Position numbers and translations under genes: made by a program. A DNA stretch of 64,000 bases from Phage NC-G, in sequence record MK310184; one strand, written 5' to 3'. The notes under the pieces are model-generated. The model was not told where the DNA came from and made no database searches. It saw only the letters and a list, made by a program, of their open reading frames with translations. Positions 78-40,461 of the stretch are shown here, piece by piece. Numbering within the stretch: position 1 is the stretch's first letter; each line of letters opens with the position of its first letter.

Positions 78-710
78 TTAAATTGCATTAGTTACGGTTT
101 TGATAACTTCAGATGATACGTTTTGGAAGTCAATATAAGTATTCTTACCACCAGTCTTAATCTTAACATCAAGATTCAAGGAAGTAAACACTTGTTTTTC
201 TTTATCAGTCATATTATAACCGAAGATACGCATCATTCCGTCACGACGGACTTCGATTTGGCGAATACCGTTGGTACGTTTAGCGAATCGAACTTCAAGA
301 TTGCTACGGTTTTCAGCAATTTCACGAATCTCGATACGGTCTTCTAACAAAGATTTAACTTCATCAGCCAATACCACCATTTCAGGAGTAACACCACGTG
401 AACTGCGAGTTTTACGTTTTTCCAACATCTCTGGAGCATTTTCAGAAGCGAACAGGTCGGCAGCTTTTTGAACTAGGTCCATTGCTTCACCCGTAGCCAC
501 CAGTCCATCACCGGATTTTTCGATGAATCCTTTCTTAATCAATACACCGATGTTAGAATTAACTACCGCAGCACTAAATTGCTCACTCAGGGCTTCACGG
601 ACTTCGCCTGAAGTGATGAAGTTATGCTTGATGATATGTACTAAGATAGAAGCCGTTTTTTCATTCAGGACGTCTTCAGAAGCTTTGATGATATAAGTAA
701 TTTTAGACAT
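78..710 (-). CDS. motA: MotA, activator of middle transcription
   Basis: 210 aa; N-terminus and NSNIGVLIKKG..EKSGDGL region match recalled T4 MotA; synteny beside gene 52. Confidence 0.88.
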   Translation of the reverse strand: MSKITYIIKASEDVLNEKTASILVHIIKHNFITSGEVREALSEQFSAAVVNSNIGVLIKKGFIEKSGDGLVATGEAMDLVQKAADLFASENAPEMLEKRKTRSSRGVTPEMVVLADEVKSLLEDRIEIREIAENRSNLEVRFAKRTNGIRQIEVRRDGMMRIFGYNMTDKEKQVFTSLNLDVKIKTGGKNTYIDFQNVSSEVIKTVTNAI

Positions 711-3113: not shown

Positions 3114-3563
3114 TTAATAACTCTGTAGAACGAATTTAAAGTTATCAGCCAACATGCGGTTCATTTCTTCCAGGGTCTGAAGGTCGGAACTATGGTTGCG
3201 AGTGAAAGCCATTGCAATTTGACCCTTACCAAAACCTGTAGTCAGTGGTTTCATTTTAGAAGCAGGTACATAAAGAACTTCATACACTACACCGTTCACA
3301 GCCATAGTGCGAGCTGATTGAGAACGTTTCTTACGGATGTTAGCCACAATACCATCAAGACCTTGAGCTGAACGTTGGTTGCCGACATAAAAGCGAGCGG
3401 CTACGACACGAGAATCTGCTTCACCTTTAACAAAGAAGTAGAAGCCTGGCTGGGCAGCGATTTCTTTAGAAGGCTTACCATTTTGGTATTCGCCATTCTT
3501 AACATAAGCAACAGTAGTAGCACCAGCAGACAGAACGTCACGGCGAGTCATATAAGTATTCAT
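3114..3563 (-). CDS. ndd: Ndd nucleoid disruption protein
   Basis: 149 aa; [39 protein letters not shown] blocks match recalled T4 Ndd. Confidence 0.9.
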
Positions 3564-11816: not shown

Positions 11817-12075
11817 AATCAAATCGAATAGTAGACTTTTTAAAGAATAATCCAGAACAAACCGTTCCTTCAACCCTTTTACCTGTCGGCCCTACAGCAA
11901 TAAAGCCTGTACGTTGGAAATCATCTTCAGAACAACCGAATAGGTTATATCCTGTGATTTGGATTTGTTCGTAGCCATTTGCATCTAATACACGGGTAGC
12001 ATTATCGGCATCAGTACAACCAACCAACGAAACTGCTAGTACAAGAGCTGCAATAGAACGATTAACATATTTCAT
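11815..12075 (-). CDS. putative lipoprotein (86 aa)
   Basis: signal peptide with lipobox LVGC. Confidence 0.55.
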   Translation of the reverse strand: MKYVNRSIAALVLAVSLVGCTDADNATRVLDANGYEQIQITGYNLFGCSEDDFQRTGFIAVGPTGKRVEGTVCSGLFFKKSTIRFD

Positions 12076-15727: not shown

Positions 15728-17059
15728 TCAAACGTAGTAGGCGTCAGTACGAGCACGAGTAATACTAACATAAGCCAGCTGTGAAGCTAAATTCACATCA
15801 GCCATATGCATGCATGGAGTATAGATAAAACTGTTCTGGACTGTAAGTCCTTGGGATTTATGAACAGTGCTCACAGGAAGAGCTCGAACCTTAGTAAACA
15901 TTCGCTTGGCTTTCCAGAAATCAGCCCACTTAGGTTTCTTACCGGTTCCACGCATAGCCTTATACTCAGTAGCAACCTTAGCCAAGAAATAATGGAACTT
16001 CTCAACTGAAGCCTCATCGATAACCTTTAAATGCTCTACATAGTACTCGTCGTCTTCATCAACAGATTCTACTTGTAGGTCCCAGTAGTTAATCATTTGT
16101 CGAGTGCCTACATCCTTAGCAGACAAGAACAATGAGGTGTGGTTCACATCTAGAATACGAACCATTTGACCGTTATTAAAAATGGTTTCAGAGAATTTCT
16201 TACCATCGTATTCAAGTTCCTTCATAAAAGGCTCTTGCATCACTAGGATTTCACCCTTAATATAAGGCGCATCGGTTTCATAAAGCTTTTTACGAATAAT
16301 GCTATTCAGCTTTTCAACCGATTTATTTGTATAAGCAAACATCCTATTCTCAAACAAGTCATCCGCGTCTTTTACAATGGAAAAATAATTCATCATAAAA
16401 TCTTTTAAAGCAGTTTGAGATTTAAAACCGTGGACACCATGTCCTTCGAATACACAATCTCTAAACCAACCACCATTACGGATTTCAGTAGCAACCTCAA
16501 TGATAGGAGCATTACTACGCATCACTTCAGTCAGATGTAGCTGTTTAATTTTAGGATGAGTAAAGAACGGAGATAACTGCGGACTTCCATCACTTCCGGG
16601 TTCTACCGGTTGTAGCTGAGCTCTGTCGCCAATCCCTAATACAGTGCACCATGGTGGCACGGAGGATTCAATAATCTTAAACAGCTTACCGTCAATCATC
16701 GAGCCTTCATCAACAACTAACACATTGCATTTGCTCAAGTCAGGAGCTTCGCGTTGTTCGAAGATATCCTGGTCTTCATATGTAGTAGGGTTAATTTTTA
16801 GAATTCTATGGATTGTTGATGCTTCTTGACCTGCGAGTTTCGACAACACCTTTTTGGCCGCATGAGTAGGTGCAGTCAAAATAACTCCGAGTTCACCGTT
16901 CTTGACTAAGTGGTCAAGGATAAATTTAGTAAGGGTTGTTTTACCTGTACCGGCTGGGCCGTTCAATGTAATCCATTCACCCTTACGTCGTTTAATAGCT
17001 TCAATGATTTCTTTAAAGGCCGTCCTCTGGCCGATGTTCAAGTCTTCAAATGTAATCAT
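15728..17059 (-). CDS. dda: Dda DNA helicase (SF1B)
   Basis: 443 aa; Walker A GPAGTGKTT and long blocks matching recalled T4 Dda. Confidence 0.93.
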   Translation of the reverse strand: MITFEDLNIGQRTAFKEIIEAIKRRKGEWITLNGPAGTGKTTLTKFILDHLVKNGELGVILTAPTHAAKKVLSKLAGQEASTIHRILKINPTTYEDQDIFEQREAPDLSKCNVLVVDEGSMIDGKLFKIIESSVPPWCTVLGIGDRAQLQPVEPGSDGSPQLSPFFTHPKIKQLHLTEVMRSNAPIIEVATEIRNGGWFRDCVFEGHGVHGFKSQTALKDFMMNYFSIVKDADDLFENRMFAYTNKSVEKLNSIIRKKLYETDAPYIKGEILVMQEPFMKELEYDGKKFSETIFNNGQMVRILDVNHTSLFLSAKDVGTRQMINYWDLQVESVDEDDEYYVEHLKVIDEASVEKFHYFLAKVATEYKAMRGTGKKPKWADFWKAKRMFTKVRALPVSTVHKSQGLTVQNSFIYTPCMHMADVNLASQLAYVSITRARTDAYYV

Positions 17060-17355
17060 GCCAATTTTACTCGCTTAACATATAAAGTGTCTAAAACTAA
17101 TTTAAGTTCTCGGGCTCGTTCTTCGGTAGGATATACTGTTTTAGTTTCCCACTTATCAAACCACCATTTTCTAGGTGTGCACACCGTTTCAAGGCGTCCA
17201 AGCCGAAGATATCTTTTTGTTGTCATTTCATAAACGGATAGAGCTGTGTCGGCTCCAATCTTTGTCGAATACAAAGTCACTTCACCGGCCTCTTCTAATG
17301 GAATTTCATACCCGTCTTTGTCCTTGTGAACTAATACGTATGCATAGTACATCAC
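17056..17355 (-). CDS. hypothetical protein (dda.1 position)
   Basis: track ORF, start overlaps upstream stop. Confidence 0.55.
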   Translation of the reverse strand: MMYYAYVLVHKDKDGYEIPLEEAGEVTLYSTKIGADTALSVYEMTTKRYLRLGRLETVCTPRKWWFDKWETKTVYPTEERARELKLVLDTLYVKRVKLA

Positions 17356-17356
17356 G

Positions 17357-18121
17357 TTAACCTCTAATCAATGAAAAAATTGAAGCATTCAGCGGAAGAC
17401 CTTTTTTCAACTTCATTTTGTCAATAAAAGAAAGGTGTTCTAAACGCTCCAGACCTTGAATAATTTTATCATACATATCGTAACGCGTTTCTGCTTCAGA
17501 CAATTTAAACTTAACCCGCCAATCAGGCCCACCAATTAAAGATTTAAGACCCTTTTCCATAGTACCGATTGAAGCATTAGAGCCATGGATACGGGCTTTA
17601 ATCGCGATGACAGAAGGGGTCTTATCGGTAGCTCCTGATTTAATAAGGTCCTTAAGACGTTTTTCACGCTTTTTAAGGCCTCTTTGGGTATCTTTAATAT
17701 TTTTAACTATTTTACGAATTTTATAATAATTATCGGGGGTTACTTTAAAACTATTAGGCATTTTAGAACTACCTGAAATACGAACTGCTAAACGAGTCTG
17801 GGCACGTTTCAGTTCATCAAGGGACAAATCGGCACGTAAGCTGTTATACTTAACTTTAACTGGGATTACATTACCCTCAATATAGCCGATATCGTTGTTA
17901 AAACGTTCAAATGAAATCTTGTCATTAACTGAATTTTCATCAAAGTACTCGCCTGAATAAGCACACACTTTTTGTTCGAGAAGTCTACGAACATACTTAC
18001 TAGACAGATTGAAGTCCTTACCGCGTTTATAAGCAGAAGCTTTGGTGTGTTTGCGGCGGTTGTAAACCTTTAACTCAAATTCATCGTTAGTTTTAATAGT
18101 AGGCATGATATTTTTTCTCAT
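17357..18121 (-). CDS. hypothetical protein (254 aa, srd position)
   Basis: track ORF; first gene after early promoter; basic C-terminal half. Confidence 0.55.
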   Translation of the reverse strand: MRKNIMPTIKTNDEFELKVYNRRKHTKASAYKRGKDFNLSSKYVRRLLEQKVCAYSGEYFDENSVNDKISFERFNNDIGYIEGNVIPVKVKYNSLRADLSLDELKRAQTRLAVRISGSSKMPNSFKVTPDNYYKIRKIVKNIKDTQRGLKKREKRLKDLIKSGATDKTPSVIAIKARIHGSNASIGTMEKGLKSLIGGPDWRVKFKLSEAETRYDMYDKIIQGLERLEHLSFIDKMKLKKGLPLNASIFSLIRG

Positions 18122-18147
18122 CTTACGGACGATTAGTTGATAGGTCT

Positions 18148-18176
18148 ATAGTATCATGTTGCTTAATAAAGTAAAC
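18148..18176 (-). promoter_or_regulatory. early promoter
   Basis: -35 GTTTAC 18171-18176, 17-bp spacer, -10 TACTAT 18148-18153, conserved agacctatcaac box. Confidence 0.6.
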
Positions 18177-18181
18177 ACTTT

Positions 18182-18208
18182 TTTGCTTTAAATTTTCGAC
18201 GGTATAAT
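18182..18208 (+). promoter_or_regulatory. candidate MotA-type middle promoter on plus strand (antisense to modA-like gene)
   Basis: consensus MotA box TTTGCTTTA (18182-18190), 12-bp spacer, -10 TATAAT (18203-18208). Confidence 0.35.
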
Positions 18209-18245
18209 GAATCAAGGACTTTGCCTTTCAATTAAACCGGGTGGT

Positions 18246-18860
18246 TCAGTAAGAAAGAACGGAAAGATTCCAAATGGTGTAATTATTCCATTTAGGATTT
18301 CTCTCAATAGAGTCTACGCGCAGCGTAGTTCCCGCAGGGAACATCATCTCATCTTCATCATTGATTAATTGTAAGTTTGCTACACGGGTAGATTCAGGAA
18401 ATGCGCCTGGGAACTCTTCAGGGGGCGCAGCACATAACATTTTAAAGATTTCTTCCTGATAATTGTACACAAATGGCGCATCATTAATACAAAAGATATT
18501 AAATGTGCCGTAGAAGTTATAAGATGCGAAATTCCTTGCCACGTTGAAGTCTTTAGAGAAGCTCATCACACGGTCGAATTCAATTACTGCACCTACACAC
18601 ATTGTGGACTCTAGATACTTCATAGTCTTTTTAGATATGCCGCGATAGAGCTTATCAGGCACTACAGAAGTCATATTCTTACGAATGATTTTGTTCAAAG
18701 TTTCTTGGATAGAATCCGGTTTATTTTCCATACACTGCCAGAGCGTGCTCTGTTCTAAATCAGAATACACCTCATCAATTTCTATCTGAGTATTCTCACG
18801 GAAATCATCGCATTTGGCATTGTTGATAAATTCTGCTAATTTATGGCTTGGGTATAACAT
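18246..18860 (-). CDS. modA: ADP-ribosyltransferase, Mod family
   Basis: 204 aa; R-S-E triad context (LYRG, SFS, EDEMMF); synteny after dda; A/B assignment by position only. Confidence 0.65.
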   Translation of the reverse strand: MLYPSHKLAEFINNAKCDDFRENTQIEIDEVYSDLEQSTLWQCMENKPDSIQETLNKIIRKNMTSVVPDKLYRGISKKTMKYLESTMCVGAVIEFDRVMSFSKDFNVARNFASYNFYGTFNIFCINDAPFVYNYQEEIFKMLCAAPPEEFPGAFPESTRVANLQLINDEDEMMFPAGTTLRVDSIERNPKWNNYTIWNLSVLSY

Positions 18861-18885
18861 ATTATTCTCCTCAGTTGATAGAAAG

Positions 18886-18915
18886 ATAGTACCACACGCT
18901 TCCTTGCCTGTAAAC
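18886..18915 (-). promoter_or_regulatory. early promoter
   Basis: -35 GTTTAC 18910-18915, 18-bp spacer, -10 TACTAT 18886-18891. Confidence 0.55.
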
Positions 18916-19484
18916 TAAAAATCCAACATTTTTAAATGAATTGTTTTATACTCGATTTCGTACGGGTCCCTTTTGACGGTTTCGATTGCAACAATCTCAA
19001 ATCGCGATAGACTAGAGACCATGAACTCACATTCGGTTTCAACCATATCATAGAGGTCAATACGGGTTTCATCTATTTCAAGCTCATCCACATTCCCTGC
19101 AAGAACAAGGTCGATAGCATGGTTGTAGTAGTCAAAAATGAAGGGTGCATTCCTGAGACTTAAAATGGTTTTTGTTCCATATTCCCAAGCCCCTGCGAAC
19201 TGTCGAGCCTGGGAGTATTGAGTACTAAAAGAAGTAACTCGACCAGGAGACCATTGACACCCTACTGAAAGGAGCTCTAATTGCTCAAGTTCTCTGGTGG
19301 TAATCCCACGATACAACTCTACCGGAACCGCTGAAGTAACATGCTTGCGAACCAGTTTGTCGAGGTCGTAATGGAAGTTAGGGTCTTTTTTGGCGTCCAG
19401 GCATTTTTCTAAAAGATTCTGTTCATGTTTTGAAAATTTGGAATTGATTCGGTCTTGATAAAGACATTTTTGTTCGATGTTCAT
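18915..19484 (-). CDS. modB: ADP-ribosyltransferase, Mod family
   Basis: 189 aa; R-S-E triad context (LYRG, TSFST, ETECEF); paralog of adjacent gene. Confidence 0.65.
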   Translation of the reverse strand: MNIEQKCLYQDRINSKFSKHEQNLLEKCLDAKKDPNFHYDLDKLVRKHVTSAVPVELYRGITTRELEQLELLSVGCQWSPGRVTSFSTQYSQARQFAGAWEYGTKTILSLRNAPFIFDYYNHAIDLVLAGNVDELEIDETRIDLYDMVETECEFMVSSLSRFEIVAIETVKRDPYEIEYKTIHLKMLDF

Positions 19485-19508
19485 ATGACCTCCAGTGATT
19501 TAGAGGTC

Positions 19509-19537
19509 ATTATAACATGAAGGGAGGAGGTGTAAAC
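19509..19537 (-). promoter_or_regulatory. early promoter embedded in RBS-sequestering hairpin
   Basis: -35 GTTTAC 19532-19537, 17-bp spacer, -10 TATAAT 19509-19514; 8-bp inverted repeat atgacctc/gaggtcat spans RBS and ATG. Confidence 0.6.
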
Positions 19538-19782
19538 TACTTAAACACACCAAGTGGGACGCCAAACACTGCAATGTCAGCAGCCATGCCTAATGAGGAT
19601 TGGGTATATAAAGTATAGGAGCTTTTTGATTCATAAGAGCTTTTTGTTTCTGGCTTCTCGACTTCAATCTTAGGAGCTTTCGCCTGAATATTTTTTTGCT
19701 CGATTTCCCTACGAGCCTGTTTACGGTCGATATCCAATGCCGATGTAGGTATATTAGTTAGCCAATTCATTATTTTACCCAA
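19537..19782 (-). CDS. hypothetical protein (81 aa)
   Basis: track ORF, co-oriented and tightly packed. Confidence 0.5.
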   Translation of the reverse strand: MGKIMNWLTNIPTSALDIDRKQARREIEQKNIQAKAPKIEVEKPETKSSYESKSSYTLYTQSSLGMAADIAVFGVPLGVFK

Positions 19783-39793: not shown

Positions 39794-40228
39794 TTAAGCA
39801 ATTACGATCATTTGTTTACGGATTGATTCAGGCAGAGATTCAATATACTCTGGAATCTTGGAAGCAACAATGGCACCGGCTTCAAGCAACTGCTCATCAG
39901 GGTCGACGCAATAATCATCTTCTAAACGTTCAGAACCGTCGCGGTCGATAACAAGTTTAGCACCTGCAGCCAAAGAATCTTTAAAGTGTTTACGCATGAT
40001 TTCAATCCACTTATCAGATACATCATTATCGATGATACTGTACAGCATAAACTTGGTTTCTTGTGGAAGAGACTGCAGACGACGTGCAGAGTCGGTATCA
40101 ATATTCAGTACCCATGATTTACGGATACGGTTCTGATTATGTGGGTTGGAATCAGTACGGATGGTTTTAACTTGGATATCTTTAACGGTAACGCCATTAG
40201 AAGTAGCAAACATAATATTTTCTCTCAT
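39794..40228 (-). CDS. rpbA: RNA polymerase-binding protein RpbA (by position)
   Basis: track ORF between 45 and 46 as rpbA in T4; start may be ATG 40213. Confidence 0.5.
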   Translation of the reverse strand: MRENIMFATSNGVTVKDIQVKTIRTDSNPHNQNRIRKSWVLNIDTDSARRLQSLPQETKFMLYSIIDNDVSDKWIEIMRKHFKDSLAAGAKLVIDRDGSERLEDDYCVDPDEQLLEAGAIVASKIPEYIESLPESIRKQMIVIA

Positions 40229-40269
40229 TTAGTTGGTAAATGTATTATAAATCAATATTTTAAAGCAAT

Positions 40270-40461
40270 TTAATCAAAATACTCATAGACAAACCATGCT
40301 GGATTTCTATTTGACATGATTGTAACATATTCTGACTTAAAAGCATTTTGGAGATATTCCTCAGTAACAAGATGTTCATCTCCAGAGAAGTTGTTAACTA
40401 AAACATATCTCTTTATTTCTGGAACGGCCAACAAATGCTGGCCTGTTATAAAATCACTCAT
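40270..40461 (-). CDS. hypothetical protein (63 aa, 45.2 position)
   Basis: track ORF. Confidence 0.5.
   Translation of the reverse strand: MSDFITGQHLLAVPEIKRYVLVNNFSGDEHLVTEEYLQNAFKSEYVTIMSNRNPAWFVYEYFD

Follow-up and report, generated by a model that had tools for sequence, protein, structure and literature searches.

A conserved, probable MotA-type middle promoter predicted to read antisense into the modA-like gene of a T4-like phage

Here we describe a sequence with the full layout of a T4 middle promoter, at positions 18182-18208 on the plus strand of a 64-kb window (the whole stretch of DNA that was analysed), which is aimed into the 3' end of a modA-like ADP-ribosyltransferase gene on the opposite strand. 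Comparison of homologous loci suggests that it is very probably a real and uncatalogued antisense promoter rather than a chance match. Such a promoter would apparently be a new addition to a well-known class, unusual in its antisense orientation. That it works as a MotA-type promoter we regard as highly probable; the entire proposition, namely a genuine MotA/AsiA-dependent promoter that reads rightward and has mod shut-off as its purpose, we hold to be somewhat on the probable side. Shut-off of the ADP-ribosyltransferase is thus offered as the best-fitting reading of the promoter, and not as a demonstrated one.

The window is that of a JS98-like Dhakavirus (best match over 17000-19500 at 95.7% identity), and the minus strand carries every open reading frame (ORF) that reaches 150 aa and is free of overlap with a larger gene. 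The features to which the argument refers are as follows.

78-710, minus strand: motA, 210 aa, with PF09114 (3.8e-39) and PF09158 (1.1e-13)
15728-17059, minus strand: dda
17056-17355, minus strand: dda.1
17357-18106, minus strand: srd, downstream of the early promoter, with an alternative upstream ATG at 18121
18148-18176, minus strand: srd early promoter, with -35 GTTTAC (18176-18171), 17 nt, -10 TACTAT (18153-18148) and a predicted start near 18141
18180-18184, minus strand: A-tract, seen as a T-run on the plus strand, which covers -39 to -43 relative to the srd early start and overlaps the first three bases of the MotA box
18182-18190, plus strand: MotA box TTTGCTTTA, at -33 to -25, its centre near -29/-30 of the predicted start
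18191-18202, plus strand: spacer aattttcgacgg, 12 nt, constrained in length and free in its letters
18203-18208, plus strand: -10 hexamer TATAAT, the next G (18209) being invariant among 28 homologous variants
18215, plus strand: predicted transcription start A18215, the 7th nt after the -10 hexamer, with a second A at -1; placed by sigma-70 geometry
18215-18860, plus strand: minimum predicted non-coding antisense transcript, across modA; may extend through modB
18246-18860, minus strand: modA-like ADP-ribosyltransferase gene, the antisense target, with 95-99% DNA identity to annotated JS98-like ModA regions
18915-19484, minus strand: modB-like ADP-ribosyltransferase gene, upstream of modA in the same leftward unit

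The coordinates and minus-strand orientation of the modA-like gene had been proposed in a first-pass annotation and hold, as does the early promoter that it placed back-to-back with the motif on the minus strand (-35 as the reverse complement of 18171-18176, -10 as that of 18148-18153, 17-nt spacer). From the predicted plus-strand start at 18215 to the stop codon of modA (18246-18248) is a distance of 31 nt, the promoter being aimed into the gene.

The published consensus of T4 middle promoters is (a/t)(a/t)(a/t)TGCTTtA, 12 +/- 1 bp and TAtaaT (PMC2988021). An exact match of this kind on the plus strand, as claimed from the first reading of the sequence, is found directly in the letters of 18182-18208, namely TTTGCTTTA, 12 bp and TATAAT, the last followed immediately by gaatcaA. 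The site has a box near -30, a gap within the range of 11-13 bp, a TAnnnT hexamer and no -35 element: the hexamers 16-18 bp upstream of 18203-18208 (TTTTGC, TTTTTG and TTTTTT) match TTGACA at no more than two of six positions, the TTTTTG found at 17-bp spacing being unusable as a -35, and the place of a TGn before the -10 is taken by GG. A sigma-70 promoter scan did not include the plus-strand site among its listed promoters. Given that both a -35 hexamer and a TGn are lacking, activity should need MotA, and sigma-70 polymerase alone should use the site poorly.

The exact pattern TTTGCTTTA-N11-13-TATAAT has one match in the 64-kb window and none in 100 dinucleotide-preserving shuffles of it (0 expected), while the looser consensus TGCTTYA-N11-13-TANNNT has 10 matches against 1.64 expected, six on the minus strand (sense) and four on the plus strand. 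On a 12-point consensus score, 12/12 is reached at two sites of the window only, 18182-18208 and 40244-40270 (sense), and the former is the sole intergenic plus-strand site in the window with a score of at least 10. The latter reads AATTGCTTTA-N11-TATAAT on the minus strand, in sense orientation and approximately 60 nt upstream of an ATG near 40185. A chance match at 18182-18208, made easier by the A/T-rich UP element of the early promoter next to it, might be argued from the overlap of the first three T of the box with the T-run 18180-18184, but the empty shuffles render it barely credible, as does the retention of the motif in at least eight genera with diverged spacers, at some loci with no early promoter adjacent.

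To describe this retention, we compared T4, the srd-upstream region of eleven further annotated phages, and 80 IMG/VR loci from an alignment of Srd. The antisense pattern wwwTGCTTyN-12-13 nt-TATAAT occurs in 32 of the 37 IMG/VR loci with full-length Srd, and the same pattern in sense orientation has no match in those 37. The genera that carry the antisense motif number at least eight (Tequatrovirus, Dhakavirus, Mosigvirus, Gaprivervirus, Jiaodavirus, Gelderlandvirus, Kanagawavirus and the Marfavirus type), and it is also present in Erwinia phage COW86c, Yersinia phage TG1, Enterobacter phage PG7 and Cronobacter phage Pet-CM3-4; individual phages with the motif include T4, JS98, RB69, APCEc01, VR25/SP18, 5N, EI, COW86c, SEA1 and PEi20. 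The homologous site of T4 reads AAATGCTTTA-aaactttcatgg-TATAAT-gaatctA (L001 3364-3398; motif 3364-3391), and the orthologous site of the Mosigvirus RB69 (L101 1082-1123) has a 13-nt spacer.

Across 28 unique variants, no change is seen in GCTT (2.0 bits), in the TATAAT hexamer or in the G that follows it, and the 7th base after the hexamer is a purine in every variant (24 with A, 4 with G). All 28 have a spacer of 12-13 nt, its positions mostly carrying approximately 0.1-0.6 bits, with the exception of the last two before the -10 hexamer (1.3-1.4 bits); within Dhakavirus, differences in the motif are confined to the spacer (cgacgg/caacgg/caatgg). The T4 middle architecture in antisense orientation that had been proposed for the site is therefore borne out by the relatives, in which the GCTT and TATAATG blocks are kept at a spacing of 12-13 nt. 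As judged from these alignments, the pattern of conservation is that of a promoter, and not that of a coding or structured-RNA element.

Presence of the motif also tracks MotA, being found in genera for which MotA homologues were identified or are reported, and not in Krischvirus loci. In addition to the motA of the window, JS98, with 95% identity to the window across dda-modB, is annotated with both asiA and motA, and by that comparison asiA would lie just outside the window, as it does in JS98. A tblastn search with the window MotA detected homologues in Dhakavirus, Mosigvirus, Tequatrovirus, Gaprivervirus and many Klebsiella phages, as well as in three of the motif-bearing phages, TG1, PG7 and Pet-CM3-4. 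The Krischvirus loci (Makalu, L051, L053 and L054) do not contain the motif despite a distant Mod-like gene directly upstream of srd, and RB49, the type phage of Krischvirus, is reported to have neither motA nor middle promoters (PMC1524935). The motif is likewise absent in L019, L045 and L055, where the mod gene is missing upstream of srd. In the Gaprivervirus phages VR25 and SP18 (L011 and L020), the box upstream of srd has CGCTTTT in place of TGCTTTA; MotA from the Gaprivervirus VR26 shares only approximately 40% identity with that of the window, and activator and site may co-vary.

The feature that is conserved among the loci is the place of the motif after a mod stop codon. In nearly all of them, the end of its -10 lies 3-46 nt past the stop of an ORF of the ModA/ModB family and the motif is aimed into that ORF, the exceptions being L032 and L039 (115 and 127 nt), apparently because the mod ORF was called short. 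In Marfavirus-type phages (Klebsiella phage EI, which is L014, together with L037, L038 and L056), dmd stands between mod and srd, and the motif stays with mod. The antisense promoter of these four loci abuts the dmd ribosome-binding site, and an early promoter is absent nearby (in L014, the stretch 859-926).

The arrangement with respect to the srd early promoter, by contrast, varies. T4, Dhakavirus, Kanagawavirus and L046 have the two back-to-back, at a distance of 5-21 nt between TGCTT and the early -35; they are face-to-face in SEA1, COW86c, L033, L039 and L049 (Gelderlandvirus type and COW86c); and the early promoter is not adjacent in the Marfavirus type (EI, L037, L056), the TG1-type L048, and 5N. 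At the face-to-face loci, the srd early promoter reads GTTTAC...TAGAAT and the opposed starts are 1-3 nt apart, so that each promoter sits inside the transcribed region of the other; the pair looks like a compact strand-flipping switch.

This variation bears on the main rival explanation, according to which the promoter is real and its selected role is local occlusion or insulation, blocking the srd early promoter and stopping read-through from mod into srd-dda, with the antisense RNA as a by-product. The distances are suggestive in several groups: the MotA box of the window spans -41 to -49 relative to the start of the srd early promoter, the early -35 is within 5-21 nt of the box core in the back-to-back phages, and the face-to-face loci have near-coincident starts. 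A role tied to the early promoter is nonetheless unlikely in view of the loci at which that promoter is not adjacent, the constant feature being the position after the mod stop codon. The same loci led us to reject the motif as solely a by-product of an UP element, since it occurs without an adjacent early promoter or with that promoter on its other side. We infer that the A-tract at 18180-18184 serves the srd early promoter as an UP element; the caution in the first-pass annotation that the T-run doubles as this A-tract and that the match may be partly fortuitous is accordingly right as to the overlap of the first three T and wrong as to fortuity, given that the motif persists where no early promoter is adjacent.

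Returning to the antisense promoter itself, its predicted transcript appears to be non-coding. The earlier statement that no plus-strand ORF follows is sustained: none exceeds 34 aa downstream of 18215, and none is conserved in relatives. A 53-aa plus-strand ORF (18207-18368) starts inside the -10 hexamer, upstream of the predicted start, and the ATG of TATAATG opens frames of 5-53 codons that differ among phages, which indicates that this ATG starts no gene. Overlap in cis with the modA mRNA would follow from geometry only, and the same arrangement recurs in the homologous loci. No convincing plus-strand intrinsic terminator was detected in 17300-19700 or in the following 7 kb or so, where the few stem-loops have no T-run tail. 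Rfam returned no match, and RNAalifold found no conserved pairs on either strand in 15 diverse variants. On the basis of these checks (Rfam, RNAalifold, terminator and ORF), a known RNA family, a structured RNA, a terminator-defined small RNA and a hidden ORF were all rejected. Synonymous identity in the 3' part of modA (0.47-0.51) is no higher than expected from the whole gene (0.47), so that extra constraint there was rejected; this result speaks neither for nor against simple antisense action, and nothing seems to be under selection beyond complementarity.

Two further explanations can be weighed against these results. In the first, the transcript does not act on mod but works in trans, either as a regulatory small RNA or through a very short peptide. 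Conservation of its first bases is moderate (A/G, then AGG-like), but the lack of a conserved ORF, structure or terminator and of excess synonymous conservation downstream makes this very improbable. In the second, the conserved blocks are a minus-strand signal, either in RNA (the mod 3'UTR or the srd 5'UTR, with a role in processing, stability or translation) or as the binding site of another protein. The reverse complement of the motif does fall in the predicted srd 5'UTR, beside the Shine-Dalgarno sequence, in 5N, COW86c and SEA1, and conserved letters run slightly past the -10 (TATAATGnnTY among the 28 variants). We nevertheless consider such a signal improbable, because conservation coincides precisely with the two elements of a promoter, set at the distance usual for one and with freely varying letters between them, because neither RNAalifold nor Rfam gave any indication of it, because the proximal srd transcript of T4-type phages would exclude the element, and because Krischvirus loci, from a genus whose type phage is reported to be without MotA, do not have the motif.

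An untranslated transcript from a MotA-type promoter might also stay hybridised to its template and prime the leading strand, as in an R-loop replication origin. The model for this reading is provided by T4 oriF(uvsY) and oriG(34), each of which consists of a MotA-dependent promoter and a downstream unwinding element and which resemble the present site in that the product of a MotA-type promoter serves as RNA and not as message; a MotA-dependent promoter close to oriA is likewise said to be used by that origin (PMC3016281). The absence of a coding role for the antisense transcript would fit such a use. Unlike oriF and oriG, however, the window site has no AT-rich unwinding element downstream: GC content is 0.42 over 50 nt and 0.37 over 100 nt from the start, the median of the window being 0.40, and 0.28 downstream of the T4 homologue against 0.32 for the locus. 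Furthermore, the mapped T4 origins (oriA, near soc, and C, E, F and G) have not been reported at the modA-srd junction (11.9 kb), although map resolution is limited (PMC3016281), and the sequence downstream is a freely diverging protein-coding gene. With neither AT-rich DNA downstream nor a mapped T4 origin at the junction, an origin of the oriF/oriG type is a weak reading, to which we attach very little probability.

We therefore return to mod shut-off, for which the following sequence of events can be proposed. Straight after infection, unmodified sigma-70 polymerase would read leftward from the modB, modA and srd early promoters. AsiA would then remodel sigma region 4 and thereby disable -35 recognition, and ModA would ADP-ribosylate both alpha C-terminal domains and thereby disable UP-element use; a block of -35 recognition by AsiA and a loss of UP-element use by alpha subunits modified by ModA/Alt are described in PMC2988021. 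With MotA on TTTGCTTTA and sigma region 2 on TATAAT, transcription would start near A18215, and an ORF-free RNA would enter modA from its 3' end 31 nt later; as no convincing intrinsic terminator follows for several kb, this RNA would probably end by Rho or by collision. Convergent transcription, together with pairing between the RNA and mod mRNA, would turn off synthesis of the toxic enzyme at the early-to-middle switch, and, since ModA contributes to driving that switch, would amount to negative feedback. Polymerase bound on the plus strand (approximately 18165-18235) would in addition sit over two elements of the srd early promoter, its -35 and its A-tract; the two promoters of this phage would then never be occupied together.

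Generalizing from this outline, we suggest tentatively, as a possibility to which we would not give even chances, that the mod gene of T-even phages travels with its own off-switch, in the form of a tail-to-tail MotA promoter that makes the locus a conserved, phage-timed feedback module resembling a toxin and its antisense RNA. It is part of the same reading, and put forward with the same reserve, that sigma appropriation turns polymerase around at this locus, away from leftward early and towards rightward antisense transcription. If true, the off-switch would be one concrete local mechanism for the shut-off of early promoters, and it would link the enzyme that disables UP-element use with its own shut-off; how T4 stops early transcription was still unknown according to Hinton 2010 (PMC2988021). 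ModA is reported to be highly toxic to E. coli (PMC2988021). Deletion of modA, however, leaves early shut-off in T4 unchanged (PMC2988021), and tight control of ModA may consequently not be critical.

Several known systems offer points of comparison. Opposed promoter pairs with transcriptional interference include pR/pL of coliphage 186, Pe/Pc of P2 and pIN/pOUT of Tn10, and type I toxin-antitoxin systems with a 3'-overlapping antisense RNA include txpA/RatA and bsrG/SR4 of Bacillus subtilis. By analogy with these three promoter pairs and with antisense transcription of T4 gene 32 (Belin 1987, as cited in PMC2988021), one flow of polymerase or one RNA may lower the other at the modA locus; the switch would here be set by MotA/AsiA sigma appropriation, and not by a repressor or by promoter strength. 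The likeness to txpA/RatA and bsrG/SR4 would consist of a convergent untranslated RNA over the 3' end of a toxic gene's mRNA, with the difference that the modA locus is not an addiction module and that its antisense RNA would follow the timetable of the phage. The closest relatives of the site are the T4 middle promoters themselves (for example PuvsX and PrIIB2), with which it has in common a MotA box near -30, a gap of 12 +/- 1 bp, a -10, no -35 and a phage-encoded MotA (PMC2988021); in contrast to them, it points against gene direction and has no gene to express. A conserved MotA-type promoter aimed into modA would present a testable case of a middle activator that silences rather than expresses.

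Transcription in T4 is among the best-charted of programmes, yet the T4 copy of the promoter, with a predicted start at about 11,897 at the modA-srd junction, is missing from the 58 identified middle promoters. The table of Hinton 2010 in which these are collected has no entry near 11,897, its neighbouring entries being Pdda.1 (start 11,138) and then P56/69 (16,813), and antisense transcription at modA is not mentioned in the review (PMC2988021). The T4 site may have escaped probing or lack activity in vivo; consensus-like T4 sites are sometimes inactive, the reported cases having GATT boxes (PMC2988021). The site has one earlier trace, in RB69: Additional file 4 of Nolan et al. 2006, an HMM scan, contains Pm:12081 (+ strand, '1 bp ins', score 7.9), which we found to be the exact RB69 orthologue (L101 1082-1123), as a line with a low HMM score in a computational list (PMC1524935). 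The orientation and conservation of Pm:12081 are left undiscussed by Nolan et al., and the word 'antisense' does not occur there (PMC1524935).

Other sources on T4 transcription were surveyed as well. A dRNA-seq preprint (2024-26; GSE255091) lists 150 transcription start sites, of which 22 are antisense, and its modA_modB assay primers aim at the 5' end of sense modB; the DksA and MotB RNA-seq papers give gene-level sense counts only. The T4 GenBank record carries no promoter features, and our literature search for an antisense RNA or promoter at modA found none. For annotation, the lesson is that promoter matches on the wrong strand of T4-like genomes should not be dropped automatically.

The DNA on the srd side of the motif has some features of its own. 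The start of srd is ambiguous: the ORF opens with ATG 18121, while the JS98 annotation and alignment to T4 favour ATG 18106, and the T4 counterpart of the upstream ATG is followed immediately by a stop codon. The blocks of the srd early promoter are kept in T4, JS98 and PEi20, with a variant -35, GTGTAC, in RB69 and APCEc01. A second TGTTGCTTAA lies at 18157-18166 on the plus strand, within the spacer of that early promoter; it has no -10 at the right distance and is absent in T4. Just 5' of the srd ribosome-binding site, at 18119-18131, is a 13-mer, CGUCCGUAAGAUG in the minus sense, which could form a 4-bp hairpin and is kept in T4, Dhakavirus, Gaprivervirus and Mosigvirus. This 13-mer recurs in the Jiaodavirus 5N as the spacer of the antisense promoter, a hint that the junction may have been rearranged or duplicated in the past.
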